Below are positions 1 through 53,522 of a stretch of 64,000 nucleotides of DNA, piece by piece (the stretch's first letter is position 1; each line of letters begins with the position of its first letter). Below the pieces are notes generated by a model. It had not been told where the DNA came from. It saw nothing but the letters and a program-made list of their open reading frames with translations, and did no database searches. The position numbers and the translations under genes were made by a program. Location: NCBI RefSeq assembly GCF_963921235.1, contig NC_086097.1, positions 61,196,001-61,260,000 on the forward strand, in the 5' to 3' direction. This DNA is from Mobula hypostoma. Taxonomy: Eukaryota.

Positions 1-426
1 GTCAACAAATACACTCAAAAACTTGTATAGATGTACCGTGGAGAGCATTCTGACAGGGTTCATCACTGTCTGGTATGGGAGGACTACTGCACAGGACCGA
101 AAGAAGCTGCAGAAAGTTGTAAATTTAGTGGGCTCCATCTTGGGTACTAGCCTACAAAGTGCCCAGGACATCTTCAAGGAGCAGTGACTCAGAAAGGCAG
201 CGTCTATTATTAAGCACCTACAGCACCCAGAGCATGCCCGTTTCTCACTGTTACCATCTGGATGGACGTACAGAAGCTAGAAAGCACACACTCAGCAATT
301 CAGGAACACTTCTTCCCCTCTGCCATCAGATTCCTAAATAGACATTGAACCCTTGAACACTACCTCACTTTTCAAATTTATATTATTTCTGTTTTCTGCA
401 CAATTTTTAATCTATTCAATACATGT

Positions 427-1289
427 TGTTACGAGAATACACATAAAATTAAGATGTTTGCTGGCCTGGGCTAGCATCAGTGGCATCAGCGGTTGGTCTG
501 CCACCTGCCCTCAGGGGAAGGAGAGATAAGCAACAGTGGAGCAGCGTCTGGAGATGTGTGGTGAGGGGACGTGGGAGAGAGAGCTGTCTGGAGCGGCTCC
601 CCCTTTGAACCCTGAACTGTTTGAAGTGATGGACAGGCGATACCCCAGCAGGGGGATAAAAAGGGACAGGTTCGCTAAGGCGGGGACACACGCCACCCGA
701 GGTAACGAGACCCTGGAAGCGGTGCGCCTCTCACGAGTGGGTGAGAAGTACCAGACAACGACAAGGGTGGAAAGGTACGATCAGCGGGAACCCGGTGTGT
801 GTCCGCCCTTGCCTGGGTGCCGGGTTCACTGCAGAGGATCGACCGCATCTGGAGGGGGGGGTCACAGTCGGTGACCTCAGGTGACATCACCAAGGACCTG
901 CCCAAAAGCTGTTTTGTGAGCCATCTCGCTGGTCTGTGAGCCATCTTGCTGGTCTGTGAGTGAAGCCGTTCTGAATGATGAGTTGTTCCTGTTCTATGTC
1001 TCTCTTCCCCCACGTTGTCCATCGCCATGGCAACGATTACTGCGAACTGAACTTTGAGTCATTTTGAAATTGGTCATTTACCCCTAGACAACGATAGAGC
1101 TTGATTGATGCTGTTATCTTAATTCTGTGCACATGTATGGTTATCATTGTTGAATTGTTGCATTTATTATCCTTTCGATTACTGTGTTGCTTGTTTCTTT
1201 AATAAAACTTTCTTAGTTCTAGTACTCCAGACTCCAACTGAGTGATCCATTTCTGCTGGTTTGGCAACCCAGTTACGGGGTACGTAACA
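427..1289 (+). repeat. 5' LTR
   Basis: Direct repeat of 4435-5300 with TGTTACG/CGTAACA inverted termini. AATAAA at 1201; internal 20-bp tandem repeat TGTGAGCCATCTYGCTGGTC near 915-960. Confidence 0.95.
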
Positions 1290-1293
1290 TAAG

Positions 1294-1311
1294 TGGGGGC
1301 TCGTCCGGGAT
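1294..1311 (+). promoter_or_regulatory. Primer-binding site, tRNA-Pro
   Basis: TGGGGGCTCGTCCGGGAT is the 18-nt complement of the tRNA-Pro 3' end, 4 nt after the LTR. Confidence 0.93.
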
Positions 1312-1387
1312 TTTGAATGCTAAATTTGGGACGGAGTAAATTGATTGGGTTAAAATTCCCGAAAGAAAGAAAAGACAAACAGCAGAA

Positions 1388-3463
1388 ATGGAGGTTGAGG
1401 AATTTATAAAGGCGCCGACCTTGGAGGCATTAGAGGATGCCAGGAAATCGGAATTGATAGCTGTGGCCAAACGGGTGAATCTTGCTAAGGTGAAGTCGAC
1501 AATGAGGAGAGAGGAGATACACAGAGCTATTGTAGAGCACTATGTATCTAAAGGTGTGTTTCCCCAAGGTGAGCTGGGGGAGGTGTCTATTGAAAAACCT
1601 GCTGGAGACGCGGTACAGGTACAGCTTGAAAAACTGAGACTCGAGCACGAGTTCCGGGTACGGCAGTTAGAACACGAAGAGAGACGGTTAGAAAGGCAGG
1701 AGAGAGAGTTAGAAAGGCGGGAGAAAGAGAAAGAGGTAGAAAGGCAAGAGAGAGAAAGACAGTTGGAGAGAGAGGAGAAACAGAGGGAAAGGGAATTTGA
1801 GCTGCAGAAGTTAAAGATAAGGGCCGAGCAGGGGCTCGTGCCGAACCAAGGTGGAGGGTTCCGGGCGACCCAGGAGGTTAGGCTAGTTCCCCCATTTGAT
1901 GATACCGACGTGGATCGGTACTTCCTCCACTTCGAAAAAGTGGCTATAAGTCAGGACTGGCCGAGGGATAAGTGGGTTGTTTTACTTCAGAGTGTACTGA
2001 AAGGGAAGGCCCAAGAAGCTTACTCAGCTTTGTCCGCGGAAGATGCCCAGAGGTATGAGGTGGTGAAAGAGGCCATCCTCAGGATTTATGAGTTGGTCCC
2101 GGAGGCATACCGGCAGAGGTTCCGGAATGCGAGGAAGCAGTGGGACCGCACGTATTTGGAGTTTGCTCGTGAGATGCAAACATATTGTGAGCGTTGGTGC
2201 GCCTCGAAAGGGGTAGAGGGGGATTATGACAGACTGCTGCAGCTGATTCTGATTGAGCAGTTTAAAGGTTGTGTCCCTGAGGGTATGAGACCCTACCTCG
2301 ATGAGAAAGAGGCAGCCACGTTAGCCGCAACTGCTAAGTTAGCGGATGAGTATGCGTTGACGCATAAAATGAAGTTTGCCCCGAGTAAAGGCTACCAGAA
2401 GGGTAGTCAGGACGGAGGGGAGAGTCCGCCGGAAAAGTCAGAAAGTAAGCCGGGGACTAGTGAAAAGGATAGGGTAGACCGGGAGCAGTCTGGTAGGAAG
2501 TCTCCTGGGGTCGTCTGTTATAATTGTGGGAAAGTCGGACACTTTGCGTCCAGGTGCTTTGCCCCAAGGAAGGAGACGGGGAAAGGAAAAGCGGAAATTT
2601 GGAATGGCTGTATCGAGCTGTTAAGCGAACCGCTAGGGAAGGACAGGTCTGAAAAAGTCCAGGAAGGGCGCGAGAGGTTTATCTCGGCCGGACTGGTGTC
2701 AGTGAAGGAGGGGTTAAAACCAGTTCCAGTGCGGATCTGGAGAGACACGGGAGCGTGTCAGTCACTAATATTGAAGAGTGTATTAGAGTTTAGCTCAGAG
2801 ACCCAGACTGGGGAGGAAGAGGTCAAAGGTGTTGGGGCAGGGACAGAGTCAGTCCCTGTGCACCAGATACACTTACAGAGCAACCTGGTCTCTGGACTAG
2901 TCACGATCGGGGTGAGGTCCGAATTACCGATGAAAGACGTGGAAGTCTTGCTCGGTAATGACATCGTCGGAGGAATTGTGTTCCCAGTCGTGAGATTGAC
3001 GGGTCAGCCTGCCAGCATTGAGGCCCGGCCCATGGACTCACAGGTTCATCGTGGGCCCCCGATGGTGAATTTGGCTGAAACATTTCTGCCAACCTTGTAT
3101 GAGACAGGGTGTAGTGAGATAAGAGGTAGTGAGGGAGCTGGGACAGACGTGGCAGTAGCCAGGAAAGAATTTGTGCAGACGCAGGAGCGAGACGAGGGGC
3201 TGATGGTTTTGGCAGAGACCGCTCTCTCTGACACAGCCTTGACAAGCTATTGTGCGGAGGAGGAAGTGCTAAGGAAGAAAGGGAAATCAAGTACAGTACC
3301 CGCAGATGAGGAATGGGGGGTGGTGCAAAAGAGTTATGGGGATGAGGTTTTTAACATGGCCCACGAAGTACCCCCCGGTGGACATTTTGCGGTGCTGGAG
3401 GAAACAGTTGGTGGAATCATGAAAGAGATTTACCGGCTGCCCAGGGAAAAAAAATGTTATTGA
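1388..3463 (+). CDS. gag: Gag (coiled coil, SCAN-like capsid, CCHC knuckle)-aspartic protease with degenerate integrase Zn-finger start, 691 aa
   Basis: ELVPEAYRQRFR...LILIEQF (SCAN-like), CYNCGKVGHFASRC, WRDTGACQSLI...LLGND (protease), AHEVPPGGHF (integrase HH). Confidence 0.9.
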   Translation: MEVEEFIKAPTLEALEDARKSELIAVAKRVNLAKVKSTMRREEIHRAIVEHYVSKGVFPQGELGEVSIEKPAGDAVQVQLEKLRLEHEFRVRQLEHEERRLERQERELERREKEKEVERQERERQLEREEKQREREFELQKLKIRAEQGLVPNQGGGFRATQEVRLVPPFDDTDVDRYFLHFEKVAISQDWPRDKWVVLLQSVLKGKAQEAYSALSAEDAQRYEVVKEAILRIYELVPEAYRQRFRNARKQWDRTYLEFAREMQTYCERWCASKGVEGDYDRLLQLILIEQFKGCVPEGMRPYLDEKEAATLAATAKLADEYALTHKMKFAPSKGYQKGSQDGGESPPEKSESKPGTSEKDRVDREQSGRKSPGVVCYNCGKVGHFASRCFAPRKETGKGKAEIWNGCIELLSEPLGKDRSEKVQEGRERFISAGLVSVKEGLKPVPVRIWRDTGACQSLILKSVLEFSSETQTGEEEVKGVGAGTESVPVHQIHLQSNLVSGLVTIGVRSELPMKDVEVLLGNDIVGGIVFPVVRLTGQPASIEARPMDSQVHRGPPMVNLAETFLPTLYETGCSEIRGSEGAGTDVAVARKEFVQTQERDEGLMVLAETALSDTALTSYCAEEEVLRKKGKSSTVPADEEWGVVQKSYGDEVFNMAHEVPPGGHFAVLEETVGGIMKEIYRLPREKKCY

Positions 3464-3503
3464 TCATGACCGACGCGAACTGAGACGGTCACCGGCTTTT
3501 GAT

Positions 3504-4262
3504 ATGCTAACAAACCTAGTCGGTGTTAGCGTGGAAATCAATGAAGCTAGGGGCCCCCTGATAAGAGAAAAGAACCATTTTGAAAAGATTAGGATGGGAT
3601 CGGTCAGATGGGAGAAGGCTATTGTTTTGGCCAGGTCTACTGATAAGGTCTCTCCCTTAATCCCCGAACAAAGCGAATCTTTAGAAGGAGTAATTAAACG
3701 ACTCGCACCTATGTGTTTGATTGTCCCGAGGAAATGCAAAGAACTGGGACGTTGGGTTATGTCTGTTACAATAGGGCAGCCCAGTAAAGAACACTCATAT
3801 ATATTGAGTAATTCAGTGACTAAAGGGCTGATGACCACAGAGGTGTGTATTGGCAATTTAATACGGCTGTCTGAAGCCAGCTTGATAGTGAACCTTGAAA
3901 AAAATGAATTCGGCCACACGAGGGTCACTTACCTGGAAATTGTGGTGACACAGGGGCAGCTGGCAGCGATGCAAGCTACAGTGCAGGCTATCGCTGACCT
4001 CCCAACCCCGATAGACAAGAGGGCCCTCAGAAGGCTTTTGGAGATGGTGGGGTACTGCAGGAAGTTTTGCAATAACTCTGCGGTCAATACCCGTTCCCCT
4101 CCTACTAAGCCCTTGCGAGAGAAAACTGAGTCGGAATGGGACAACCCTTGTTGTTGTGGTCCGGGACAAAACAAAATGAGAGGGTACATTGGTCGCAATT
4201 CATCAGTATTTTTGGCCACTATGAAGTTTGCTGAGTTGGAGCCTGGTCTAAGGGATTATTAA
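3504..4262 (+). CDS. Degenerate pol remnant (RT C-terminal/thumb region, no YxDD); probably the continuation of the gag ORF
   Basis: LSEASLIVNLEKNEFGHTRVTYL...AIADLPTPIDKRALRRLLEMVGYCRKFC resembles the Gypsy RT C-terminus. The frame is open upstream to the A8 run at 3447-3454. Confidence 0.7.
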   Translation: MLTNLVGVSVEINEARGPLIREKNHFEKIRMGSVRWEKAIVLARSTDKVSPLIPEQSESLEGVIKRLAPMCLIVPRKCKELGRWVMSVTIGQPSKEHSYILSNSVTKGLMTTEVCIGNLIRLSEASLIVNLEKNEFGHTRVTYLEIVVTQGQLAAMQATVQAIADLPTPIDKRALRRLLEMVGYCRKFCNNSAVNTRSPPTKPLREKTESEWDNPCCCGPGQNKMRGYIGRNSSVFLATMKFAELEPGLRDY

Positions 4263-4422
4263 TAACACGTGTAAAAGGAACAGAAAATGTGATGACTGTC
4301 TGTCAAGGTGTTGACAGCTTCAAATTCTCTGTATTAGCTAAATAACTGTTAAAGATATATATTGTGTATGTATCAGATAATGTAGTCATGTTTGTAATTT
4401 TTACCTCCCGGTAAAAATCCTT

Positions 4423-4434
4423 AAAGGGGGGAAG
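4423..4434 (+). promoter_or_regulatory. Polypurine tract
   Basis: AAAGGGGGGAAG immediately before the 3' LTR. Confidence 0.85.
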
Positions 4435-5300
4435 TGTTACGAGAATACACATAAAATTAAGATGTTTGCTGGCCTGGGCTAGCATCAGTGGCATCAGCGG
4501 TTGGTCTGCCACCTGCCCTCAGGGGAAGGAGAGATAAGCAACAGTGGAGCAGCGTCTGGAGATGTGTGGTGAGGGGACGTGGGAGAGAGAGCTGTCTGGA
4601 GCGGCTCCCCCTTTGAACCCTGAACTGTTTGAAGTGATGGACAGGCGATGCCCCAGCAGGGGGATAAAAAGGGACAGGTTCGCTAAGACGGGGACACACG
4701 CCACCCGAGGTAACGAGACCCTGGAAGCGGTGCGCCTCTCACGAGTGGGTGAGAAGTACCAGACAACGACAAGGGTGGAAAGGTACGATCAGCGGGAACC
4801 CGGTGTGTGTCCGCCCTTGCCTGGGTGCCGGGTTCACTGCAGAGGATCGACCGCATCTGGAGGAGGGGTCACAGTCGGTGACCTCAGGTGACATCACCAA
4901 GGACCCGCCCAAAAGCTGTTTGTGAGCCATCTCGCTGGTCTGTGAGCCATCTCGCTGGTCTGTGAGTGAAGCAGTGTTCTGAATGATCAGTTGTCCCTGT
5001 TCTCTCTGTCTCTCTTCCCCCACGTTGTCCATCGCCATGGCAACGATTACTGCGAACTGAACTTTGAGTCATTTTGAAATTTGGTCATTTACCCCTAGAC
5101 AACGATAGAGCTTGATTGATGCTGTTATTTTAATTCTGTGCACATGTGTGTTTATCATCGCTGAACTGTTGCATTTATTATCCTTTCGATTACTGTGTTG
5201 CTTGTTTCTTTAATAAAACTTTCTTAGTTCTAGTACTCCAGACTCCAACTGAGTGATCCATTTCTGCTGGTTTGGCAACCCAGTTACGGGGTACGTAACA
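4435..5300 (+). repeat. 3' LTR
   Basis: Direct repeat of 427-1289. Confidence 0.95.
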
Positions 5301-6809
5301 ATGTATACTGTAATTGATTTACTTATTTATTATTATTATTTTTATTTTTTCCTTCTATATTACATATTGTATTGAACTGCTGCTGCTAAGTTAACAAATT
5401 TCATGACACATGCCGGTGATAATAAACCTGATTCTGAGTCAGATTACCACTCTCGTTATCCAGAGGACCAAATTTGTCCCTTGCTATCCTTTTGCTCTTA
5501 ATATAATATTGGACACCCTAAGGACTTTCCTTTATCTTGTTTGCTCGAGCGACCTGAAGCCTTACCTTAGCCCTCCTGACTTCCTTCTTAAATGCTGTCT
5601 TGCATCTTTTATACTCGTCAAGTATCTCATTTGTTCTACCCGCCTATACCTGCTATGCATTACCTTTTCATGTTTCTGTCCATGAACTAAACTTCAGCTC
5701 ATGTGAATACATCATTCCCAGTCCCACTTTCCCTACTGGTGTTTATAACCTATTTTGTGGCACTGTAAAGCACGTTGGATGTCCCAAGCAAAGAGCTCGT
5801 CAACACTTCGAGTTGATCAGGATCGGGATGTCAGGTTCTGACCTAAAACATCATCTGTGCTGCCTGCTGCAGGTAAGTTCCTCCAACAGTAAGATTTTTT
5901 TTTGCTTGAAAGAGTATTTTCCGACCCTTGGAGTATTTTTAAGATGTATATAAATGTAACTTCTTCTGTATAAACAACAATAAGAGGTTATGTTGTGAGG
6001 GAGTTTAGGAGGTGGGGTTCATGCATTTCTTCTGAGGTGAGAAACCAGGTCTTGCTCTGAAGGCAGTGTCTCTGTATCATGGCAAGTAAGAATGAGGGAT
6101 AACATGTTAATTATTTCACCTCCTGCTATGCTGGAAAGTTTGGTTCTGAAATTCACTCTTGTGTATCATGCATTATCTCTAACTGCTAAAGTTATCTGTT
6201 TAATAATGCATTAAGACAAGTGGCAGCTTTCCAACAGAAAATGCACTTCCTGCTATCTAGCTTCAGATTTCCAAAAAAAAATTCCCAGGTTTGCATAAAT
6301 TTAGGGAGTTTGATACTTATGTAGGTAGGAAAACCATTGAATTAATTGGAAGCATGTGGTGAGTCTGAGGTTTCTATAATAGAAATCAAGACACCATATT
6401 GTGCAAGAAGAACATTTCTTCTTTGATTAAGTAAATGGCCGTGTGAAAAGTTGCAGCCTATGGGATTTGTTCCTTACTCTTTCAGAAATTAGAAATTAAT
6501 TTTCCAGAATTTAGCTGAAATTTGCTGAGGTTTTCATTCTGCTTGTTTTTTTTTAATCTCCTTTATCTAATGAGTTTGGCAGTGAAACAGACTTTACAAG
6601 AGGGGTGTGTTAATGATCAGAAGGATCTGAGTAAACACAAACCTCAAAGTAAGCAATACCAACAGAAGTAGAGGTTACGAACTGCCAGTACTTAAAGTGT
6701 AAATCTGATTAAGGACAGAACATGGGTTATTAAAATAATACAGTAGAACATAATGTTTTTTTTCCATGACTCTGGGTGAACAAAGAAAAGCTTAAAATGA
6801 ACTGAGAAT

Positions 6810-7235
6810 AATCAGAATTAGGTTTCTTTTAACTGGCATATGATGTGAAATGTGTTTGTCTTGTGGCAGCAATACCTTGTAATACACAAAAAATAACACT
6901 ACAATAGAAAATATCAAAAATTAAGTAAGTAGTGCCAAATAAGACAGCAACAAATGAGGTAGTGTCGATGGGTTCATGGTCTATTCAGATGATGGAGGGA
7001 AGAAGTTATTCCTTAAGTATTGAGTGAGTGAATTCAGGCTCTTGTCCCTCCTCCCTGATGGTAACAACGAAAAGGAAGGTTGTCCTGGGTCCTTAAGAAT
7101 GATGCCACTGCCTTGAGGCTTTGCCTTTTGAAGATGTCCTCAATGTTGGGGAGGCCTGTGCTCATTATGGAGCTGACTGAGTTTACAATCCTCTGCAGTT
7201 TGTTCTGATCTTGTGTATCGGCGACTCCATATCAA
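6810..7235 (-). mobile_element. Rex1/Babar-like LINE 3' fragment
   Basis: TCAGAATTAGGTTT tail, then degenerate C-terminal coding sequence similar to the reverse complement of 100-300. Confidence 0.55.
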
Positions 7236-10656: not shown

Positions 10657-12270
10657 CAAAGGTTCAAAGATTAAATTATTATCAAAGTATCCAACTCTAA
10701 AATTCCACTTCTCCAGGTAGCCATGAAGCCAAGAAAGAAAGGAAAGACAGCACAATCATCAACCCCAAATCCCCCTCCATGCATGAAAGAAAATAAAAAA
10801 GATTGGGTGAAAAACACAGACTATAAAAAAAACCTATCAGACTGAAAGAAAATTCTATAGTCCAAGTCCACAACCAAAACACAGAAAACCTGTGCAACAC
10901 TCTCCAGGCACAGCGGCAGGTTCTCCCTGCTCTGGTGCAGGGCAATCAAAAGGCAGGCAGTCGGCGCTTTCCCTCCACACTAGCCTCAATACTTATATCT
11001 CCCTCTTTGATTCAGTTGGCAAACAATGGAAGCTTTCATCAATGAAATGGAGTTGATCATTGGCTTGTGCCCTGTCCCGCAACCTGCCCACTATGAGATT
11101 CATGCACGCTGCCTCTGTATCCTGGAATTCTCTCAAAATTGCAGAGCGCTGGAACACTCAGATGATCTTTAAACTTCTGCATTGGCCTTGATGTTTCAAC
11201 CTCCCTCATCACTTTAATTAGCAAAAAAAACAGAAGCTTTAATCAGCAAAATGAAGTTGTACACTGGCTCCCACGCTGTCCCGCAGACTGCCTGCCATGA
11301 TATTCCGTCATGCTACCTCTGCCTCCCGGAATCCTCTTGAAGGCTGCAGAATGCTGGAACATCCAAACAATCTCCAAACAGAAAATTACAGGCTCTAATA
11401 GTTCCAGAATCACATTTGTGACGAATACACATAGATAAGATGTTAACTGTCCTGTGTGATCAGCAGTTGGTCTGCCACCTGTCTTCAAGAGAGAGATAAG
11501 GGACACAATGAAACAGCACCTGGAGATGTGTAGAGAGCTGTCTGGAGCGGCTGCCCCTTTGAACCCTGAACTGTTTGAAGTGATGGACAGGCGATACCCC
11601 AGCAGGGGGATAAAAAGGGACCGGTTCGCTAAGGCAGGACACACACGACACCCGAGGTAACGAGACCCTGGAGCGGTGCGCCTCTCACGAGTCGGTGGGA
11701 AGTATCGGACAACGCACAGGGTGGAAAGGTACGATCAGCGGGAACCCGGTGTGTGTCCGCCCTTGCTTGAGTGCCGGGTTCACTGCAGAGGATCGACCGC
11801 ATCTGGAGGAGGGGTCACAGTCGGTGACCTCAGGTGACATCACCAAGGACCTGCCCAAAAGCTGCTTGTGAGCAATTATTGCCGGTCTGTGAGTGGAAGC
11901 CGTGTTTGAATGATCAGTCGTTCCCGTTCTCTCTCTCCCTCCCCCCACGTTGTCCATCGCCATGGCAACGATTACTGCGAACTGAACTAAATTGGACTGA
12001 ACTTTTGTGTCACTTTGAAATTGGTCATTTATCCCTAGACAACGATAGAGCTTGATTGCTGTTGTTATCTTAATTCAGTGCACATGTGTGTTTATCATTG
12101 CTGAACTGTTGCATTTATTATCCGTTCGATTACTGCATTGCTTGTTTCTTTAATAAAACTTCCTTAGTTCTAGTAATCCAGACTCCAACTGAGTGATCCA
12201 TTTCTGCTGGCCAGTTACGGGGTACGTAACACTTTCAAGATGAAAAACAAATGTAAAAGACATAGATGTG
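10657..12270 (-). repeat. Unclassified interspersed repeat (LINE 3'UTR-like) inside the ERV LTR; hosts the solo LTR
   Basis: Abrupt break in the LTR homology at ~10657, starting with a CAAAGGTTCAAAG...TTATT tail-like motif. Right boundary uncertain. Confidence 0.4.
11417..12231 (+). repeat. Solo LTR of the 427-5300 family (diverged subfamily)
   Basis: TGTGACG...CGTAACA, colinear with 427-1289, with no PBS or internal sequence. Flanks CATT/CTTT (imperfect TSD). Confidence 0.9.
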
Positions 12271-14762: not shown

Positions 14763-17231
14763 ATTAAGATTTCTTCCGCCGTCTCCGTCTCCGAGCCTAC
14801 TTCTTCGGCAAGGACTCTTCCACCCCCACCGATGACCCTTTCTCCGGTCTTCAACCCTCCTCTTCTTCATGGACACCCCGCTCTGGTCTTCTGCCTGCTC
14901 TGGATCTCTTTATCGCTAATTGCCGACGGGACATCAACCGTCTCAACTTCACCGCACCTTGTCCCCATTCCAACCTCACTCCTTCGGAACGCTCTGCTCT
15001 CCACTCCCTCCGTACTAATCCTAACCTTATTATTAAACCCGCCTATAAGGGGGGTGTTGTTGTAGTCTGGCGTACTGACCTCTACCTTGCCGAGGCACAG
15101 CGACAACTCGCGGATACCTCCTCTTATTTACCCCTCAATCGTGACCCCACTAAGGAGCACCAGGCCATTGTCTCCCACACCATCACCGACTTTATCCGCT
15201 CAGGGGATCTCCCATCCACTGCTACCAACCTTATAGTTCCCACACCTCGCACTTCCCGTTTCTACCTCCTACCCAAGATCCACAAACCTGCCTGTCCTGG
15301 CCGACCTATTGTCTCAGCTTGCTCCTGCCCCACCGAACTCGTTTCTGCATACCTCGACACGGTTTTATCACCCCTTGTTCAATCCCTTCCGACCTATGTT
15401 CGTGATACTTCTCATGCTCTTAAACTTTTCGATGATTTTAAGTTCCCTGGCCCCCACCGCTTTATTTTCACCATGGATGTCCAGTCCTTATATACTTCCA
15501 TCCCCCATCAGGATGGTCTCAAAGCTCTACGCTTCTTTTTGGATTCCAGACCTAATCAGTTCCCCTCTACCACCACTCTGCTCCGTCTAGCGGAATTAGT
15601 CCTTACTCTTAATAATTTCTCTTTGGCTCCTCCCACTTCCTCCAAACTAAAGGTGTAGATATGGGCACCCGTATGGGTCCTAGCTATGCCTGCCTTTTTG
15701 TTGGCTTTGTGAAACAATCTATGTTCCGTGCCTATTCTGGTATCTGTCCCCCACTTTTCCTTCGCTACATCGACGACTGCATTGGCGCTGCTTCCTGCAC
15801 GCATGCAGAACTCGTTGACTTTATTAACTTTGTCTCCAACTTTCACCCTGCCCTCAAGTTTACCTGGTCCATGTCCGACACCTCCCTCCCCTTTCTAGAT
15901 CTTTCTGTCTCTGTCTCTGGAGACAGCTTATCCACTGATGTCTACTATAAGCCTACTGACTCTCACAGCTATCTGGACTATTCCTCTTCTCACCCTGTCT
16001 CTTGCAAAAACGCCATCCCCTTCTCGCAATTCCTCCGTCTCTGCCGCATCTGCTCTCAGGATGAGGCTTTTCACTCTAGGACGAGGGAGATGTCTTCCTT
16101 TTTTAAAGAAAGGGGCTTCCCTTCCTCCACTATCAACTCTGCTCTTAAAAGCATCTCCCCCATTTCACATACATCTGCTCTCACTCCATCCTCCCGCTAC
16201 CCCACTAGGAATAGGGTTCCCCTGGTCCTCACCTACCACCCCACCAGCCTCCGGGTCCAACATATTATTCTCCGTAACTTCCGCCACCTCCAACGGGATC
16301 CCACCACTAAGCACATCTTTCCCTCCCCCCCCCCTGCATTCCGCAGGGATCGCTCCCTACACAACTCCCTTGTCCATTCGTTCCCCCCCATCCCTCCCCA
16401 CTGATCTCCCTCCTGGCACTTATCCGTGTAAGCGGAACAAATGCTACACATGCCCTTACACTTCCTCCCTTACCGCCATTCAGGGCCCCAAACAGTCCTT
16501 CCACGTGAGGCAACACTTCACCTGTTAGTCGACTGGGGTGATATACTGCGTCCGGTGCTCCCGATGTGGCCTTTGATATATTGGCGAGACCCGACGCAGA
16601 CTGGGAGACCGCTTTGCTGAACACCTACGCTCTGTCCGTCAGAGAAAGCAGGATCTCCCAGTGGCCACACATTTTAATTCCACATCACATTCCCATTCCC
16701 ATTCTGACATGTCTATCTATGGCCTCCTCTACTGTAAAGATGAAGCCGCACTCAGGTTGGAGGAACAACACCTTATATTCCGTCTGGGTAGCCTCCAACC
16801 TGATGGCATGAACATCGACTTCTCTAACTTCTGCTAAGGCCCCACTTCCCCCTCGTACCCCATCTGTTACTTATTTTTATGCACACATTCTTTCTCTCAC
16901 TCTCCTTTTTCTCCCTCTGTCCCTCTGAATATACCTCTTGCCCATCCTCTGGGTCCCCTCCCCCCTTGTCTTTCTTCCCGGACCTCCTGTCCCATGATCC
17001 TCTCGTATCTCCTTTTGCCTATCACCTGTCCAGCTCTCGGCTCTATCCCTCTCCCTCCTGTCTTCTCCTATCATTTTGGATCTCCCTCTCCCCCTCTAAC
17101 TTTCAAATCCCTTACTCACTCTTCCTTCAGTTAGTCCTGACGAAGGGTCTCGGCCTGAAACGTTGACTGCACCTCTTCCTACAGATGCTGCCTGGCCCGC
17201 TGCGTTCACCAGCAACTTTGATGTGTGTTGC
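14763..17231 (+). mobile_element. Penelope-like element, 5'-truncated (RT + GIY-YIG endonuclease, frameshifted)
   Basis: FTMDVQSLYTSIP, MGTRMGPSYACLF, FLRYIDD, GVIYCVRCSRCGL*YIGET. 14-bp TSD TAGAAGATTAGGAG (14749-14762, 17232-17245). Confidence 0.92.
17132..17169 (+). ncRNA. Minimal hammerhead ribozyme motif in the PLE terminal repeat
   Basis: TAGTC-CTGACGA-AGGGTCTCGGCCT-GAAA-CGTT^GACTG: CUGANGA and GAAA cores, palindromic ACGT stem III, GUU triplet. Confidence 0.75.
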
Positions 17232-35306: not shown

Positions 35307-38134
35307 AGTCAAGTCAAGTCAAGTTGTTTTTTATTGTCATTTCGACCATAAACTGCTGGTACAGTATACAGTAAAAACGAAACAACGTTCCTCCAGGACC
35401 ATGGTGCTACATGAAACAACACAAAACTACACTAGACTACAGACCTGCACAGGACTACATAAAGTGCACAAAACAGTGCAGGGCAGTACAATAAATAATA
35501 AACAAGACAATAGGCACAGTAGAGGACAAATTACAATATAATAATAAATGATGTTGATGTCAGTCTAGTCTCTGGGTATTAAGGAGTCTGATGGTTTGGG
35601 GGAAGAAACTGTTGTACAGTCTGGTCGTGAAAGCCCGACTGCTTTGGTACCGTTTGCCAGATGGCAGAAGGGAGAAGAGTTTGTATGAGGGGTGCATGGG
35701 GTCCTTCACAATGCTGTTGGCTTTATGGGTGCAGCATGTAGTGTAAATGTCTGTAATGGCGGGAAGAGAGACCCAGGTGATTTTCTCAGCTGACCTCACT
35801 TTCTGCTGCAGGGTCTTGCGATCTGAGACGGTGCAATTCCCGAACCAGGCAGTGATGCAGCTGCTCAGGATGCTCTCGATACAACCTCTGTAGAAAGTGG
35901 TGAGGATGCTGGGTGGGAAATGGACCTTTCTCAGCCTTCGCAGAAAGTAGAGACGCTGTTGGGCTTTCTTGGCTATGGAGCTGGTGTTGAGGGACCAGGT
36001 GAGATTTTCCGCCAGGTGAAAACCAAGAAATTTGGTGCTCTTAACGATCTCAACAGAGCAGCCGTCAATGTTCAGCGGAGAGTGGTCGCTCCGTGCTCTC
36101 CTGAAGTCAACAACATCTCTTTTGTTCACATTCAGAGACAGGTTGTTGGCTCTGCACCAGTTCGTGAGCCGCTGCACCTCCTCTCTGTATGCTGACTCAT
36201 CGTTCTTGCTGATGAGACCCACCACAGTCGTGTCATTGGTGAACTTGATGTTGTGGTTCGAGCTGTGTGTTGCAGCACAGTCGTGGGTCAGCAGAGTGAA
36301 CAGCAGTGGACTGAGCCCTGGGGGGCCCCGTGCTCAGTGTGATGGTGTTGGAGATGCTGCTTCCAATCCAGACTGACTGTGGTCTCCCAGTCAGGAAGTC
36401 TAGGATCCAGTTGCAGAGGGAGGTGTTCAGGCCCAGTAGGCTCAGCTTTCCAATCAGTTTCTGAGGAATGATTGTGTTGAATGCTGGACTGAAGTCTCTG
36501 AACAGCATTTGAACGTACTTGTCTTTTTTGTCCAGGTGGGTTAGGGCCAGGTGGAGCGTGCTGGCGATGGCGTCGTCTGTTGAACGGTTAGGACGATACG
36601 CAAACTGCAGGGGGCCCAGTGAAGGAGGCAGCAGGGTCTTGATGTGCCTCATGACGAGCCTCTCGAAACGCTTCCTGATGATGGATGTGAGTGCGACGGG
36701 ACAGTAGTCGTTGAGGCAGGACACTGAAGACTTCTTCAGCACGGGGACGATGGTCGCGGCCTTAAAGCATGTTGGAACGATGGCATTGCTCAGGGAGATA
36801 TTGAAGATGTCAGTGAGAACATCTGCCAGCTGGTCTGCATATCCTCTGAGCACTCTGCCAGGAATATTGTCTGGTCCCGCAGCCTTCCGTGGGTTGACCC
36901 TGCATACAGTTTTCCTCACATCAGCCACGGTAAGACACAGCACCTGGTCATTGGGAGGAGGAGTGGTCTTCCTTGCCACCACATCATTTTCCACCTCGAA
37001 ACAAGCATAAAAGTTGTTCAACACATCTGGGAGGGAGGCATCACCAGCACAGGAAGGTGGTGTTGTCTTGTAGTTGGTGATGTCCTGAATGCACTTCCAC
37101 ATGTGCCGCGTGTCGCCGCTGTCCTGGAAGTGGCTGTGGATGCACTGGGCGTCTGCACGCTTTGCCTTTCTGATGGCCCAGGACAGTTTGGCCCTCGCTG
37201 TTGTTAGGGCTGCCATGTCCCCTGCTCTGAAGGCGGAGTCACGGGTTCTCAGCAGTTCACGCACCTCCGCGGTCATCCATGGCTTCTGATTAGCGCATAT
37301 AGTGATGGTCTTGGACACAGTGACATCATCAATGCACTTGCTGATGTAGCTAGTCACTGATGCCGTGTACTCCTCTAAGTTGGTGGAGTTGCCATCGGTT
37401 ACAGCCTCCCTGAATATGTGCCAGTCAGTGTGCTCAAAGCAGTCTTGAAGAGCAGAGATGGCTCCTGCTGGCCAGGTTTTCACCTGCTTCTGAACCGGTC
37501 TGGAGCGTCTGACAAGTGGTCTGTATGCAGGGATAAGCATAACAGAGATGTGGTCTGAGTAACTGAGGTGGGGGCAGAGTTCCGCACGGTACACATCAGG
37601 GATGTTTGTACAAACAAGTTCCAACGTGTTCGCCCCTCTCGTTGCAAAGTCTACATGCTGATAGAATTTGGGGAGAACTGACTCATGGTTCGTGTGGTTA
37701 AAATCTCCAGCGACAATAAACAGTCCCTCAGTATGTGCATTCTGCAGTTTGCTAATAGCCCCATACATTTCACAGAGCACCTCCTCAGCATTAGCACTGG
37801 GGGGAATGTACACACCGACTATAAGGACAGTGGTGAATTCCCATGGTAAATAAAATGGTCTGCATCTAACAGTCATAAACTCCACTAGTGATGAGCAGTA
37901 ACTAGAGACCAGCACACAGTTCTTGCACCATTCCATGTTAATGTATATACACAAGCCACCACTGCGAGCCTTACTGCATAGAGCTGCATCTCTGTCAGCC
38001 CGAAACAAAGCGAGCCCGTCTAACTGAAAGACGGCGTCTGGAACTCTGTCGCTAAGCCACATTTCCATGAAAACGAAAGCACAGCAGACTCTGAACTCCT
38101 GCCAAGTAGTCAACTGGAGTCGTATGTGGTCCAA
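35307..38134 (-). mobile_element. Rex1/Babar-like LINE, 5'-truncated (endonuclease + RT + C-terminal domain)
   Basis: ORFs 36233-38134 ([27 protein letters not shown]) and 35560-36225 (QRLYFLRRL). FADD is altered to FTND; (GACTT)n tail; possible TSD TTTACA. Confidence 0.9.
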
Positions 38135-38851
38135 TTTACAGCAATAATGGTAACTGGATAATGTCTACAGTGTGTCTCAGCAAGTGCTTTTTTTCCGTTA
38201 GTGTTAAAAGGATATCTGAGGAAATATCACAAGTGTGTGAAGTTATCCAATTAGGAGAAAAAGTATATAAATATTGAGAGTCATTCAGGTTTATCAGGAA
38301 TATGGTAAAGAACATCAAGAAGCCATGAAAGAAACAAGTTGTAAGTCTGTTTCTCCAGCTTCGGTTTTTGCAATAGACAACTTGCTTGTCTGTAACTTGA
38401 TAGAATGTCATTTTAGTTTATAGGAATTGTACTTGTATCTTGGAAATCCTTAATCCTTTAAGCTTAATGTTTATGGTTTAGAATTGGCTTGAAATTTGGA
38501 AATGTTTTATAATGTTCCAAGATTCAAGATAATAATTCAATGGATCAAGATAAGGTAGGAATCCCCCGTGAATTTTAAACGAGTTTTAAGAATATTGTTT
38601 GGATTTAAATGTATATCAATAAAAATAGTGAACTGTGTTTCAAACTACTTTGATAACTCAAAATATTTTCTCCTTGGTAGGGAGAGGGGACCCACCACTC
38701 AGATAGTGCGCATTGGCAGCTAAACTCACCATGGAGAATAGACCCATCGGCAGTTCCACTTCTTGCTGCTGTGGCACACTTAATTTGTCATCCTTGTGAA
38801 AATGTACACATTAGTGCAAAATGCAGGGTGACTCAGCTATCCCTGCTGACC

Positions 38852-41701: not shown

Positions 41702-44700
41702 TCAGAACCCCGCCCCAGCCTTCTCTCCATACCCCTTGACCCCTGTAGCCACAAGGGCCATATCTAACTCCCTCTTAAACATAGCCAATGAACTGGCCTC
41801 AACAGTTTGCTGTGGCAGAGAATTCCACAGATTCACCACTCTCTGTGTGAAGAAGTTTTTCCTAATCTCGGTCCTAAAAGGCTTCCCCTCTATCCTCAAA
41901 CTGTGACCCCTCGTTCTGGACTTCCCCAACATCGGGAACAATCTTCCTGCATCTAGCCTGTCCAATCCCTTTAGGATCTTATACGTTTCAATCAGATCCC
42001 CCCTCAATCTTCTAAATTCCAACGAGTACAAGCCCAGTTCATCCAGTCTTTCTTCATATGAAAGTCCTGCCATCCCAGGAATCAATCTGGTGAACCTTCT
42101 TTGTACTCCCTCTATGGCAAAGATGTCTTTCCTCAGATTAGGGGACCAAAACTGCACACAATACTCCAGGTGTGGTCTCACCAAGGCCTTGTACAACTGC
42201 AGTAGTAGCTCCCTGCTCCTGTACTCGAATCCTCTCGCTATAAATGCCAGCATACCATTCGCCTTTTTCACCGCCTGCTGTACCTGCATGCCCACTTTCA
42301 ATGACTGGTGTATAATGACACCCAGGTCTCGTTGCACCTCCCCTTTTCCTAATCGGCCACCATTCAGATAATAATCTGTTTTCCTATTTTTGCCACCAAA
42401 GTGGATAACTTCACATTTATCCACATTAAATTGCATCTGCCATGAGTTTGCCCACTCACCCAACCTATCCAAGTCACCCTGCATCCTCTTAGCATCCTCC
42501 TCACTGCTAACACTGCCGCCCAGCTTCGTGTCATCCACTAACTTGGAGATGTTGCATTTAATTCCCTCATCCAAGTCATTAATATATATTGTAAACAACT
42601 GGGGTCCCAGCACTGAGCCTTGCGGTACCCCACTAGTCACCGCCTGCCATTCTGAAAAGGTCCCGTTTATTCCCACTCTTTGCTTCCTGTCTGCTAACCA
42701 ATTCTCCACCCACACCAATACCTTACCCCCAATACCGTGTGCTTTAAGTTTGCACACTAATCTCCTGTGTGGGACCTTGTCAAAAGCCTTTTGAAAATCC
42801 AAATATACCACATCCACTGGTTCTCCCCTATCCACTCTACCAGTTACATCCTCAAAAAATTCTATGAGATTTGTCAGACATGATTTTCCTTTCACAAATC
42901 CATGCTGACTTTGTCCGATCATATCTCCGCTTTCCAAATGTGCTGTTATCACATCCTTGATAACTGACTCCAGCAGTTTCCCCACCACCGACGTTAGGCT
43001 AACCGGTCTATAATTCCCCGGTTTCTCTCTCCCTCCTTTTTTAAAAATTGGGGTTACATTAGCCACCCTCCAATCCTCAGGAACTAGTCCAGAATCTAAC
43101 GAGTTTTGAAAAATTATCACTAATGCATCCACTATTTCTTGGGCTACTTCCTTAAGCACTCTAGGATGCAGACCATCTGGCCCTGGGGATTTATCTGCCT
43201 TCAAACCCTTCAATTTACCTAACACCACTTCCCTACAAACATGTATTTCACTCAGTTCCTCCATCTCACTAGACCCTCTGTCCCTTACTATTTCTGGAAG
43301 ATTATTTATGTCCTCCTTAGTGAAGACAGAACCAAAGTAATTATTCAATTGGTCTGCCATGTCCTTGCTTCCCATAATCAATTCACCTGTTTCTGTCTGC
43401 AGGGGACCTACATTTGTCTTTACCAGTCTTTTCCTTTTTACATATCTATAAAAGCTTTTACAGTCCGTTTTTATGTTCTCTGCCAGTTTTCTCTCATAAT
43501 CTTTTTTCCCCTTCCTAATTAAGCCCTTTGTCCTCCTCTGCTGAACTCTGAATTTCTCCCAGTCCTCAGGTGAGCCACTTTCTCTGGCTAATTTGTATGC
43601 TACTTCTTTGGAATTGATACTATCCCTAATTTCTCTTGTCAGCCACGGGTGCACTACCTTCCTTGATTTATTCTTTTGCCAAACTGGGATGAACAATTGT
43701 TGTAGTTCATCCATGCAAGCTTTAAGTGCTTGCCATTGCATATCCACCGTCAATCCTTTAAGTGTCATTTGCCAGTCTATCTTAGCTAATTCACGTCTCA
43801 TACCTTCAAAGTTACCCCTCTTTAAGTTCAGAACCTTTGTTTCTGAATTAATTATGTCACTCTCCATATTAATGAAGAATTCCACCATATTATGGTCACT
43901 CTTACCCAAGAGGCCTCTCACGACAAGATCGCTAATTAACCCTTCCTCATTGCTCAAAACCCAGTCCAGAATAGCCTGCTCTCTAGTTGGTTCCTCGACA
44001 TGTTGGTTCAAAAAACCATCCCGCATACATTCCAAGAAATCCTCTTCCTCAGCACCTTTACCAATTTGGTTCACCCAGTCTACATGTAGATTGAAGTCAC
44101 CCATTATAACTGCTGTTCCTTTATTGCACACATTTCTAATTTCCTGTTTAATACCATCTCCGACCTCACTACTACTGTTAGGTGGCCTGTACACAACTCC
44201 CACCAGTGTCTTCTGCCCCTTAGTGTTACGCAGCTCTACCCATATCGATTCCACATCTTCCCGGCTTATGTCCTTCCTTTCTATTGCGTTAATCTCTTCT
44301 TTAACCAGCAACGCCACCCCACCTCCCCTTCCTTCATGTCTATCCCTCCTGAATATTGAATATCCCTGAACGTTGAGTTCCCATCCCTGGTCACCCTGGA
44401 GCCATGTCTCTGTGATCCCAACTATATCATAATCATTAATAACAATCTGCACTTTCAATTCATCCACCTTATTACGAATGCTCCTTGCATTGACACATAA
44501 AGCCTTCAGGCGCTCTTTTACAACTCTCTTAGCCCTTGTACAATTATGTTGAAAAGTGGCCCTTTTTAATGCTTGCCCTGGATTTGTCGGCCTGCCACTT
44601 TTACTTTTCTCCTTTGTACTTTTTGCTTCTACGCTCACTTTACACCCCTCTGTCTCTCTGCACTGGTTCCCATCCCTCTGTTGTGAACTAACCTCCTCAC

Positions 44701-44734
44701 GCCTAGCCTCTTTAATTTGATTCCCACCCCCCAA
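41702..44734 (-). CDS. CR1 ORF2: AP endonuclease + reverse transcriptase, 1010 aa
   Basis: NARSIRNK, ITETWL, GDFN, SDH, QHGF, YLDFQKAFD, SGVPQGSVLGP, SKLVDDTK; no stops. Confidence 0.95.
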   Translation of the reverse strand: MGGGNQIKEARREEVSSQQRDGNQCRETEGCKVSVEAKSTKEKSKSGRPTNPGQALKRATFQHNCTRAKRVVKERLKALCVNARSIRNKVDELKVQIVINDYDIVGITETWLQGDQGWELNVQGYSIFRRDRHEGRGGGVALLVKEEINAIERKDISREDVESIWVELRNTKGQKTLVGVVYRPPNSSSEVGDGIKQEIRNVCNKGTAVIMGDFNLHVDWVNQIGKGAEEEDFLECMRDGFLNQHVEEPTREQAILDWVLSNEEGLISDLVVRGLLGKSDHNMVEFFINMESDIINSETKVLNLKRGNFEGMRRELAKIDWQMTLKGLTVDMQWQALKACMDELQQLFIPVWQKNKSRKVVHPWLTREIRDSINSKEVAYKLARESGSPEDWEKFRVQQRRTKGLIRKGKKDYERKLAENIKTDCKSFYRYVKRKRLVKTNVGPLQTETGELIMGSKDMADQLNNYFGSVFTKEDINNLPEIVRDRGSSEMEELSEIHVCREVVLGKLKGLKADKSPGPDGLHPRVLKEVAQEIVDALVIIFQNSLDSGLVPEDWRVANVTPIFKKGGREKPGNYRPVSLTSVVGKLLESVIKDVITAHLESGDMIGQSQHGFVKGKSCLTNLIEFFEDVTGRVDRGEPVDVVYLDFQKAFDKVPHRRLVCKLKAHGIGGKVLVWVENWLADRKQRVGINGTFSEWQAVTSGVPQGSVLGPQLFTIYINDLDEGIKCNISKLVDDTKLGGSVSSEEDAKRMQGDLDRLGEWANSWQMQFNVDKCEVIHFGGKNRKTDYYLNGGRLGKGEVQRDLGVIIHQSLKVGMQVQQAVKKANGMLAFIARGFEYRSRELLLQLYKALVRPHLEYCVQFWSPNLRKDIFAIEGVQRRFTRLIPGMAGLSYEERLDELGLYSLEFRRLRGDLIETYKILKGLDRLDAGRLFPMLGKSRTRGHSLRIEGKPFRTEIRKNFFTQRVVNLWNSLPQQTVEASSLAMFKRELDMALVATGVKGYGEKAGAGF

Positions 44735-44739
44735 CCATT

Positions 44740-45060
44740 CTAGATTAAAGTCACCTCAGTAGCCCCCGCCAATCTCCCCGCCAGGATATTGGTCCCCCTA
44801 GGATTCAAGTGTAACCCGTCCTTTTTGTACAGGTCACGCCTGCGCCTGAGGTCCCAATGATCCAAAAACTTGAATCCCTGCCCCCTGCTCCAATCCCTCA
44901 GCCACGCATTTATCCTCCACCTCATCGCATTCCTACTCTCACTGTCGCGTGGCACAGGCAGTAATCCCGAGATTACTACCTTTGCGGTCCTTTTTCTCAA
45001 CTCCCTTCCTAGCTCCCTATATTCTCCTTTCAGGACCTCATCCCTTTTCCTACCTATGTC
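44740..45060 (-). CDS. CR1 ORF1 C-terminal fragment (SGNH esterase-like)
   Basis: KVVISGLLPVP...FLDHWD...DGLHLNPRGTNIL. Confidence 0.8.
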   Translation of the reverse strand, partial: DIGRKRDEVLKGEYRELGRELRKRTAKVVISGLLPVPRDSESRNAMRWRINAWLRDWSRGQGFKFLDHWDLRRRRDLYKKDGLHLNPRGTNILAGRLAGATEVTLI

Positions 45061-50320: not shown

Positions 50321-51792
50321 CAGGAGGTATGAAATGGGCCATTCTAATCAAAATAAGCCATTGTAGTTCTTCTAAAGAGCCTGCTCATGGGTTCTGCCAC
50401 TAGGATACTGCTTTATCTGGGTTGCCAACAATATACATGCATTTTATGTTATCTCTGTCTCAGGCAGTGCTCCCTCTAGGCTATGACACTTGCTCTGCTC
50501 TGTAACGCTTGTCTGGCACACACAGAACAGTAGAGCGCAGAACAGACTCTTCAGTCAAGATAATGTTTGGTAACCTTTTAACCTGCTCTAAGATTAACCT
50601 AGCCCTCCATTTCCTTTCAGCCATGTGCTTCTTTAAGAATCTATGAAATCTCCCTAATGTTTCCATCTGTACCTGCAGTGTGTTCCATGCAAAAAGTAAA
50701 AATTGGATTCTGATATCCTACCTATACTTTCATCCAATCACCTTAAAATTATGCCCTTTCATATTAGCCACTTCTATCCTGGGCAAAAGGTGCTGGCCAT
50801 CCATTCTACCTATGCTCCTTACCGTCTTGTATACCACTACGAAGTTGCCTTTCATCCTCCTTCACTCCAAAGAGAAAAGTGCTACCTTGCTCAAACTTTC
50901 CTCATAAAACATGATCATTCATCCTAGTAAATCTCCTCTGCACCCTCTCTGAAGCCTCCACATCTTTCCTGTACTGAGATGATCAGAACTACTCCTAGTA
51001 TGGTCCAACATTACCTTGCAGCTCTTCTCCGACTAAAGAAGGCCAACATACTATATGCCTTTTAACCACCCTATTGATTTGTGCGTGAACTTTGGGGGAA
51101 TCTATCAACACGGACTCCAAGATCCTTCTACTCCTTCACACTGCTAGGAATTCTGCCACTAACTTTGTACTCTACCTTCAAGTTCAATCTTCTATAGTAG
51201 AGTCCAGATTGAACTCCATCCACCAACTTTTAACTCAGCTCTGCATCCTATCACTGTCCCATGGTAACCTATGACAACCTTCTACAACTCAACTGACCTT
51301 TGTCATCTACAGACGTATTAAAGTACTTTTCCATTTCCCCATACAAGTAATTTATAAATATCATAAAGAACAGGGGTCCTAGAGCAGATCTCTGCAGGAC
51401 ACTAGTCACCAGCCTACAAGCAGAATATGGTTCATCTACTACCATTCTCTTTGAGCAAGCCAATGCTGAATCCATGCATTTTCCCTTAGCCCCATGCCTT
51501 CTGTCATTCTGTATGAGCCTACCATGGGGAACCTTAACAAACACTTCACTAAAATCCATCTTCACCATATCCACTGCTGTATATTCATCAATTTGCTTTG
51601 TCAGTATCCAGAGAATATTGAAGAATTCAATCAGGCTTATGAGGCACAACCTACCTTCGCAAAGTTGACTATCCCTATTCTGATTATGCTTCCCTAAATG
51701 TTCATAAATCCTTTCTGTATGAATTATCCCCAATAGTTTTCCCACCACTGGTGTAATGCTCACTGGTCTATAATTCCCACTGGTCTATAATT

Positions 51793-52404
51793 GCCCGGGG
51801 TGTATGGGGTGTCAGGGAGGGGTAGCACCTCTGGTGGGGGAACATGTCACGTCCTTTTCAGGGTGGTTAGTCCACCTTTGGTCCCCACCTGGCACTCAGC
51901 TCTCACCTGTGGCTCCCCGTAGCTGTTTGCATGCGACAGTGGCCACACCCCGGGCAACAGCTTCGACAAGCCGGCTAAACCAGGTGAGGGTAGCCGACGG
52001 GTCTCAAACCCTCGGTGAGATAGGGAGTTGTCTATCCCAGCATGTGAAGACAGACTCCGGCGGATTGAGCGGACGAGACCAATGGAAGGTCCAACGATCA
52101 AGAAGGCGGTCTCTGCAAGCGTCGTGTAACGTGTAGAGCAGGACAAGACACAGGACGTCTTCTGTGTCTTGTGCTGCTCTACACGTTCCACGATGCTTGC
52201 AGAGACAGCCTTCTTGACTCTGACCAGCCATCTTGACTCTGTCTTGCCACTGGATCCAGATGGGAATTGGGAAGAGAGAGTGAGGCTGACGCTGTGCAAC
52301 TCTCCCTCACTTAAATCCAAATCACGCGCTAGTCTCGACACCATCAATAATGGTGTCGAGGTCCTCATCGACATACGATGGACGAACAACAACAAAACAA
52401 CAAC
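51793..52404 (+). mobile_element. Non-autonomous RTE-like retroposon (SINE-like), ~610 bp
   Basis: GC/CpG-rich insert interrupting the CR1 PGNY|RPV codons; (AAC)n tail; TSD ATAATT (51787-51792, 52405-52410); no recognisable coding domain. The RTE assignment is inference. Confidence 0.7.
51806..51988 (+). ncRNA. Candidate HDV-like self-cleaving ribozyme
   Basis: P1 GGGGTGT/ACACCCC, P2 CTCACCTG/CAGGTGAG, P3 GGC/GCC, L3 starting TCC, P1.1 GG, P4 GCTT/AAGC, J4/2 GGCTAA, all in canonical order. Confidence 0.65.
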
Positions 52405-53522
52405 ATAATTCCCAGGATTATCCCTATTACCTTTCTGGAACAAAGGAATAACACTTGCCACCTTCCAATCTTCTGGTACTACTGCGTCTGGTGAGGGATC
52501 ACTGCCAAAGACACAGCAATCTCTTCTTTTGTTTCCAATAATAACCTGGAGTATATCTTTTCCTCCCCAGGGACACATCCACCCTTCTGTTATTCACAAG
52601 TTCCAGCACACTTCCTTTCTTAACATCAAAAGGGTCCAACATTGTAGCCTGTTTCACAATGTCCTCACATTAGTCAAGGTCCCTCTCACTGGTGAACACT
52701 GAAGCAAGTATTCCTTAAGGACCACCCTAACTCATTTGTCCTCTGGCACGTTTCCCCCTTTTATCACTGATCAGTCGTACCCTCACTCCATTCCACTCAT
52801 ATATGAATGAAATGCCTTGGGTATTTCCTTATCCTGCTCATCAACGTCTTCTCATGACTCCTTCTAGTTTGCATAAGTTCCTTCTTAAGCTCTCACTGGC
52901 TATTTTATAACCCTCGGGAGCCCTGTTTTCCTAAATTTTAAATATCTTTCTTCCTCTTCACTAGATATTCTACTTCACTTGTCAACCATGTTTTCTTCAC
53001 CCTACCATCCTTTCCCTGCCTCAAAGGAACAACCTATCCAGAATGCCATGCAAGTGCTCCCTAAATACCTCAGCATTTCTATTGCACATTTCTGTGATTA
53101 CATCTCTTCCCAATTTATCCTCCCAAATTCTTGCCTTAATGCATCATAATTAGTCATCCCCAAATTAAATACTTTCCCATACCATCTGCTCCTATTCCTG
53201 AGCTGTGTTTTGTCTCCAAAATGCTCACTCACTGAGAGATCTGTCACCTTCTCAGGCTCATTGCTTATTTCTGGACTCAGTATGACCTCTCCTCTAGTCA
53301 ACATTTCCACATAATGTGTCAGGAATCCTTCCTGTTCACACACAACATATTCTGTCCCATTTAAACCTTTTGCATTGAGGCAGCCCCAATCAATATTATT
53401 TAAATTGAAGTCAACCCTGCTATTTTTGCACTTTTACATAATCTGCCTTCCAATGTGTTTTTCAGTATTTCTATTTCTAAGGGGAGTGGGGGTCAGGGTT
53501 CTACAGAATACCCCCGACAGAA

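Follow-up and report, generated by a model that had tools for sequence, protein, structure and literature searches.

Long terminal repeat (LTR) retrotransposons of the Gmr1-like Ty3/Gypsy type encode a Gag protein with a SCAN domain, followed in a single frame by protease (PR), integrase (IN) and, at the end, reverse transcriptase (RT) with RNase H (RH) (10.1101/2025.03.03.638093, PMC4131045). Elements that lack part of this equipment are known from other hosts. In wheat, the high-copy Gypsy elements RLG_Sabrina_SA and RLG_WHAM (PMC9744471) and RLG_Quinta (PMC11302176) encode Gag or Gag-protease, lack RT as well as integrase and depend on a partner. In the mouse, the non-autonomous IAP 1-delta-1 subfamily carries an internal deletion that creates a Gag-Pol fusion frame, and it outnumbers its helper in new insertions (PMC7411935). 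Defective coronavirus RNAs with large open frames appear as a cited title in PMC9610340, which offers no further usable precedent. We here describe a Gmr1-like element in a stretch of 64,000 nucleotides of the devil ray Mobula hypostoma (assembly GCF_963921235.1, contig NC_086097.1, positions 61,196,001 to 61,260,000, forward strand), henceforth called the window. Behind a constrained Gag-protease it carries an eroded pol tail, the frame of which has probably been kept open beyond chance. We put the probability at about one half that selection would here act on the position at which the ribosome stops, not on the protein content of the tail.

The locus shares with Gmr1-like elements the SCAN-bearing Gag, the order PR-IN-RT-RH, LTRs ending in TG..CA, a primer-binding site (PBS), a polypurine tract (PPT) and a short target-site duplication (TSD). 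Its nearest full-length relative among the matches listed is a polyprotein from a sawfish (P0144), which is 42% identical. Full Gmr1-like elements differ in that their IN, RT and RNase H have the catalytic cores that are deleted here. An earlier note, made from the letters of the sequence, had assigned the element to this group because of its SCAN Gag and of IN preceding RT; the assignment is confirmed by a match to PF02023 (E 2.9e-13) and by pol remnants in the expected order. With the wheat semi-autonomous elements it has in common a constrained Gag-protease frame, the lack of a working RT or integrase and a large number of copies. Those elements, however, have a proposed partner, and the accessible text on them mentions no long translated pol remnant; the present one is a vertebrate Gmr1 with an eroded in-frame tail of about 360 codons. 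Like IAP 1-delta-1, it has an in-frame gag-pol deletion yielding one fusion frame. IAP 1-delta-1, in contrast, is an endogenous retrovirus that needs Gag and Pol in trans and is described as having one deletion, whereas here Gag-protease is whole and several deletions, together with replacement of about 40-50%, have accumulated while the frame was open. Nor is an IAP ancestry indicated, all relatives listed being Gmr1-like Gypsy polyproteins. What sets the family apart is thus the long-kept, eroded, in-frame pol tail with a preserved intermediate; Gag-protease-only elements (wheat) and in-frame Gag-Pol deletions (mouse IAP) are already known. In the open-licence literature no description of this family was found; subscription papers, Repbase and Dfam lay outside that search.

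The element belongs to a multi-copy non-autonomous family with shared deletions. Relatives were gathered through protein searches and from contigs of sequencing runs. The best protein matches among those listed are RefSeq proteins of M. hypostoma with 88-95% identity. Sixteen such proteins, cluster members included, extend into the tail, and 15 of them have the region of the first junction. A single frame runs to the last residue of the second open reading frame (ORF2) in 8 of the 16, in 5 of these from the first Met over 939-1004 amino acids (aa). The other 8 are broken, at six places; since RefSeq models favour long frames, these numbers do not estimate the fraction of open copies. In each of the four runs aligned, from three organisms, contigs span the internal region completely (30 of 30 bins). 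Run X1 contributed 19,117 aligned contigs, and the listed X16 and X9 pieces bridge the first two junctions; contig depth is no measure of copy number. That the deletions would be common to a whole family, as had been supposed, is hence borne out.

The history of the family can be followed over several stages. By its sequence, P0288 of M. birostris (XP_072125372.1; one match below 1e-30 in a search of 1.84 billion proteins) is an older intermediate stage, already deleted and open. Its 408 aa form a single open frame and share 52% identity with the young tail; the YxDD motif has already decayed. It already has the joint between the IN N-domain and the IN C-end (about 289 codons lost) and that between RT start and palm (about 128 lost), and it ends at the site of the third deletion (about 87 codons). 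Since then the young family has lost 18, 7 and 2 codons and twice gained one, always in-frame; deletions of 4 and 6 codons in the tail are common to subsets of young copies, and one of 5 codons is older. A tree of Gag-protease, built from 30 of 33 proteins (3 without the cut motifs were left out), forms a ladder from P0016, a broken relative that retains the integrase start, via older deleted copies, one of them from M. birostris, to the young group. The tree places the element with ray elements that keep integrase, the RT core itself being deleted. The deleted state is found in both annotated Mobula species; the split between M. hypostoma and M. yarae is dated near 20 million years (10.64898/2026.10.27.761883). 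P0002 was also considered as a recombinant with the tail of P0005, a view that was dropped: its linker-RT part is equally distant (15/162) from P0005 and from P0001.

A side aspect of the family concerns annotation. P0003, P0009, P0127 and P0132 are filed by RefSeq as isoforms of MACC1, PISD, UBE2G2 and PPM1L, respectively, and the proteins consist wholly of the element's frame. These entries probably arose from copies in introns that became joined to the models of host genes, and the element would thereby account for such spurious host-gene "isoforms" in Mobula.

Mapped on the full-length Gmr1-like polyproteins P0141, P0142 and P0144, the tail resolves into four pieces of pol, which have retained their ancestral order (PR-IN-RT-RH on all three) and frame; at the joints, deletions have removed about 289, 128 (+18) and 87 codons (Table 1). 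About 360 of some 930 codons survive. The integrase core, the RT fingers with most of the palm, and the RNase H core are gone, the latter together with the connection in the 87-codon deletion. The absence of the integrase core, of the RT palm (YxDD) and of RNase H, which the earlier note had reported, is largely confirmed by this mapping, although a decayed relic of YxDD survives. Its view that nothing but the IN zinc finger and the RT thumb remained was too narrow. Both are present, diverged and free of stops, but the zinc finger lacks its CxxC half, and also the integrase C-end, the linker, the RT start, the YxDD relic and a piece of RNase H have persisted. This last piece is identical to P0141 in 10 of 23 residues, which none of 300 shuffles equalled; 2 of 300 did so for P0142, and the similarity to P0144 was not significant. 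Behind it lies 4227-4314; when this part was aligned in three frames to each of the three references, two of its three pieces scored at a level that no shuffle out of 300 reached. A MAFFT placement of the mid-tail on the integrase core was discarded, being contradicted by P0288.

Protein comparison indicates that Gag-protease is constrained and that the sequence of the tail is relaxed. As conserved we counted positions with 80% or more conservation among 94 autonomous polyproteins. In capsid and protease, P0125 has retained 101 of 115 of these; for the tail the figure is 51 of 98 (p 9e-9), which implies that the tail sequence drifts and agrees with the claim of a strongly diverged tail. In the IN N-terminal stretch, ray relatives that keep integrase hold 24/28 and 25/27 conserved positions; the family holds 11-14 of 25. 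Compared with P0016 and polarized by a first outgroup, this stretch shows 31 changes on the family's side against 4 in 103 columns, and Gag-protease 31 against 17 in 273 columns; with a second outgroup the numbers are 24 against 4 and 11 against 17, respectively. In seven young copies, replacements present in at least two copies hit 17 of 318 tail sites versus 9 of 464 Gag-protease sites (p 0.013); shared replacement sites are not independent events. Non-conservative ones among the shared replacements number 12 in the tail versus 3 in Gag-protease (p 0.002). Singletons, which arise after insertion, are alike in both parts (24 and 26, p 0.30). At the DNA level, the shared differences (11 nonsynonymous and 5 synonymous in the tail, 3 and 4 in Gag-protease) point in the right direction, yet are too few to weigh; this count comprises 35 of 40 rows listed of 397, with 4 rows in the purine run and 1 past the stop omitted.

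The frame, in turn, has probably stayed open beyond chance. With the mutation spectrum of the aligned contigs, nonsense changes amount to 0.047 of missense changes in tail codons. The 0.37-0.57 replacements per site over 359 codons then predict 6-10 stops; none is present, with P(0) between 1e-4 and 2e-3. For the young branch since the split from P0288 alone, 7 stops are expected (P(0) 0.001). Moreover, the tail has undergone no fewer than 11 length changes, the three large deletions included, all of which left the frame intact, even if those of one codon may be alignment artefacts or compensated shifts; three frame changes are found in the final 88 bases (4227-4314). The lack of common tail frameshifts in the contig indel table was not counted, since that table misses gaps visible in the proteins. 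With no stop instead of roughly 3-10, the earlier claim of a tail kept open is supported.

Why should a tail be kept open that does not care about its sequence? The tail seems indifferent to its sequence and has shrunk steadily in-frame, fixed frame breaks are limited to the final 88 bases, and another stop-free tail occurs in a second ray lineage (see below). Together these points suggest that what matters would be the position of the stop, and that RNA surveillance could be the selecting agent. Gmr1 elements are presumed to express one gag-pol frame from unspliced RNA. The stop now lies about 950 nt ahead of the poly(A) signal, the site being deduced from AATAAA; if it directly followed the protease, the distance would be about 2,230 nt. 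UPF1 loads on 3' untranslated regions (UTRs) according to their length (PMC4764554). Rous sarcoma virus (RSV) RNA with the stop shifted upstream becomes unstable, and long 3' UTRs destabilise unspliced retroviral RNA (PMC4764554, PMC2925335). Source copies with early stops would then supply less RNA for packaging and give rise to fewer daughter copies; deletions that keep the frame would cost nothing or even be favoured, and frame breaks would be tolerated near the end only. RSV resembles this family in the long 3' UTR behind the gag stop of its unspliced genomic RNA. It guards that stop, however, by an element that binds PTBP1, whereas the devil-ray family would move the stop downstream by translating filler.

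An element without RT, integrase and RNase H activity depends on helper enzymes for its movement. That RT and integrase would be borrowed in trans, as the earlier note had it, accordingly follows from the anatomy deduced here, yet a helper, i.e., an intact Mobula polyprotein, was absent among the best 120 of 979 and the best 120 of 644 protein matches. If the view based on stop position is true, a vertebrate retroelement shows selection on a reading frame apart from its protein, and it offers both a preserved intermediate and many countable copies. Genomes alone could then test whether surveillance of 3' UTR length shapes which LTR elements spread.

The second lineage comes from stingrays (P0018, P0021, P0022, P0051, P0019 and P0031; Hemitrygon, Hypanus, ENA) and is known from protein models alone. 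It forms a separate clade (100/100) and combines Gag-protease with a stop-free tail of 285-377 aa, which is unlike pol and resembles a decayed copy of the lineage's own Gag end; against shuffles, this self-similarity is clear in 2 of 5 proteins, marginal in 1 and absent in 2. Tentatively, and at less than even odds, one may generalize: non-autonomous Gmr1 families of rays may have solved the early-stop problem at least twice independently by keeping behind Gag-protease a sequence-free "filler" frame of 300-400 codons, made of pol scraps in devil rays and of a duplicate of their own gag in stingrays. They might then be multi-million-year records of RNA surveillance selecting on frame length alone, and might serve as Gag donors to one-frame helpers that make equal amounts of Gag and Pol.

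Several observations weigh against selection on the stop position. Even open copies carry a 3' UTR of 0.95 kb, and the missing helper counts here, too. In the nucleocapsid region the family's side shows an excess of changes (15 vs 3) with one outgroup, although not with the other (3 vs 4), and the thumb has retained more of its conserved positions (28/44) than the other pieces of pol (23/54; p 0.044), which hints at a possible role of the protein. P0002 and P0005 are broken at one and the same site of the thumb, about 90 codons early, be it by descent or by repeat slippage; a shared break of this kind could also fit tolerance near the end. There may also be no selection on the frame at all: stops may have been escaped by luck, deletions guided into frame by microhomology, and open copies preferentially annotated. 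If only the 61 unambiguous changes of the young branch are considered, about 3 stops are expected and P(0) rises to about 0.06; one of the large deletions lies at an in-frame microhomology, which by itself favours keeping the frame; and 8 of the 16 siblings as well as the window copy are broken, in a set of protein-level data that is biased to long frames. Yet the central estimates of P(0), 1e-4 to 2e-3, and the contrast between frame-keeping length changes and frame changes confined to the very end speak against luck, and features fixed in the source lineage are independent of which copies got annotated. We therefore regard chance as rather improbable.

A real, if doubtful, competitor is a function of the tail protein in cis, by analogy with what is reported of mouse IAP 1-delta-1 (PMC7411935): the long Gag-protease-tail product might bring its own RNA into particles or pair with the helper's Pol via the thumb or the integrase N-domain. 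The better-kept thumb and the ancestral frame of all remnants would fit. The thumb itself, however, has 6 shared changes in 89 sites, 4 of them non-conservative, and 114 palm-thumb columns contain 23 changes on the young side; CxxC is lost, pieces were deleted stepwise, and the stingray tail is unrelated. Recruitment of a helper by the tail protein, one of the options of the earlier note, is weakened likewise, as conserved residues erode, radical changes spread and pieces continue to be deleted; its other two options, NMD avoidance and a cis role of translation, are both candidates. A tail that acts as a mere spacer, in length or solubility, for particle assembly or for the timing or spacing of protease activation, whatever its sequence, would explain relaxed sequence and open frame equally well, and a length of about 360-400 aa from P0288 to the young copies, with 285-377 aa in stingrays, would suit it. 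Wheat Sabrina_SA and WHAM, however, spread on Gag-protease alone (PMC9744471), and we consider such a spacer unlikely. That the element is a solitary decayed copy, or has become a host gene by domestication, might be suspected from some copies residing in RefSeq as host-gene isoforms; the sibling copies rule it out for practical purposes, being many, dispersed and joined at the same junctions, and so do the intact LTRs and TSD, the broken window copy and the ladder-like succession of subfamilies.

Table 1. Features of the element (positions counted from the first letter of the window)
Feature	Position	Strand	Remarks
5' target-site duplication ATGT	423..426	+	identical four bases at 5301-5304
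Element, whole	427-5300	+	Gmr1-like Gypsy LTR element; SCAN Gag, protease, integrase ahead of RT
5' LTR, 863 nt	427..1289	+	TATA-like motif (655) and AATAAA (1201); R region would be long
Primer-binding site, 18 nt	1294..1311	+	4 nt past LTR; sole match in window, 0 expected; presumably tRNA-Pro type
ORF1	1388-3463	+	691 aa from Met
gag	1388..2670	+	N-terminal domain, then coiled-coil repeat (variable), capsid including SCAN domain (aa 238-327), and CCHC knuckle (aa 376-390)
Aspartic protease, DTG motif	2671..2980	+	weak Pfam match; aligns to autonomous proteases
Spacer	2981..3145	+	in-frame shortening relative to older relatives
Integrase N-terminal remnant	3146..3476	+	both His kept, CxxC lost; ~289-codon deletion behind
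ORF2	3423-4262	+	279 aa stop to stop
Frame break of window copy, purine run	3444..3463	+	ORF1 stop 3461-3463; siblings read through
Integrase C-end, linker, RT start remnant	3477..3803	+	~128-codon deletion behind
RT palm piece, decayed YxDD relic (3846-3857), 18-codon deletion, RT thumb remnant	3807..4151	+	~87-codon deletion behind
RNase H end piece, in-frame, 23 codons	4158..4226	+	catalytic residue lost
Last ancestral pol codons	4227..4314	+	frame changes three times; stop of the family at 4260-4262, former stop at 4312-4314
Polypurine tract	4421..4434	+	directly ahead of 3' LTR at 4435
3' LTR, 866 nt	4435..5300	+	AATAAA at 5212
3' target-site duplication ATGT	5301..5304	+	

In the Gag part, the SCAN domain and the zinc knuckle (E 4e-6) both score beyond the Pfam cut-offs. 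The protease has a weak Pfam match only (E 0.16), but contains the DTG motif and aligns to autonomous proteases; a Pfam search with ORF2 gave no match. Of the conserved capsid positions 66 of 74 are kept, of those of the protease 35/41 in siblings and 33/42 in the window copy. Among the rows listed, Gag-protease of the window copy shows 5 nonsynonymous and 2 synonymous near-private differences. It is therefore "intact", as had been stated, in the sense of an open and constrained frame, but not pristine. The Gag coiled-coil repeat (window 1660-1800) varies in length by up to about 80 residues between copies and is in-frame in all proteins seen.

In the window copy, ORF1 and ORF2 overlap at a purine run (3444-3454) that contains eight A at 3447-3454, and together they span about 957 codons, as the earlier note had it. 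Its suggestion that removal of one A fuses the two holds insofar as siblings read through the run; their junction residue, however, differs from the one spelled out there. Contigs also bear on its question about the run in other copies: the length differs from that of the window in about 20,600 of 23,000 of the contig depth of run X1 and in 481 of 481 of run X5. With most of the depth showing another run length, the frame break of the window copy, be it real or a slip of assembly, is a private or rare state.

LTRs, PBS, PPT and TSD are intact, as claimed before. The two LTRs are 97.5% alike and end in TG...CA. Their mismatches are not evenly spread: 18 of 20 fall within one block of 302 nt (window 854-1155 versus 4862-5165, LTR positions 428-729), a clustering that none of 20000 uniform draws equalled. 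The 2.5% divergence is therefore no clock, and LTR dating would overstate the age. Outside the block, 2 mismatches in 561 bases indicate that the insertion is young and that the block has a separate cause. It may have been converted by a different copy or stem from a strand jump from one template to a second, or the assembly may be a mosaic here. The term "young" thus stands, even though the figure of 97.5% cannot be used to date the element.

The element was inserted into the AT-rich tail of an older repeat (1-426 and 5301-5440), the halves of which rejoin across the TSD. An inverted partner of 334-370 lies at 6952-6988. At 11417-12231 lies a solo LTR, 83% alike and flanked by CATT and CTTT, which belongs to an older subfamily of the element's own family. 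Long frames at 14768-16525, 35563-38164, 41705-44755 and 51272-52593 resemble what we take to be reverse transcriptases of the LINE or Penelope type.

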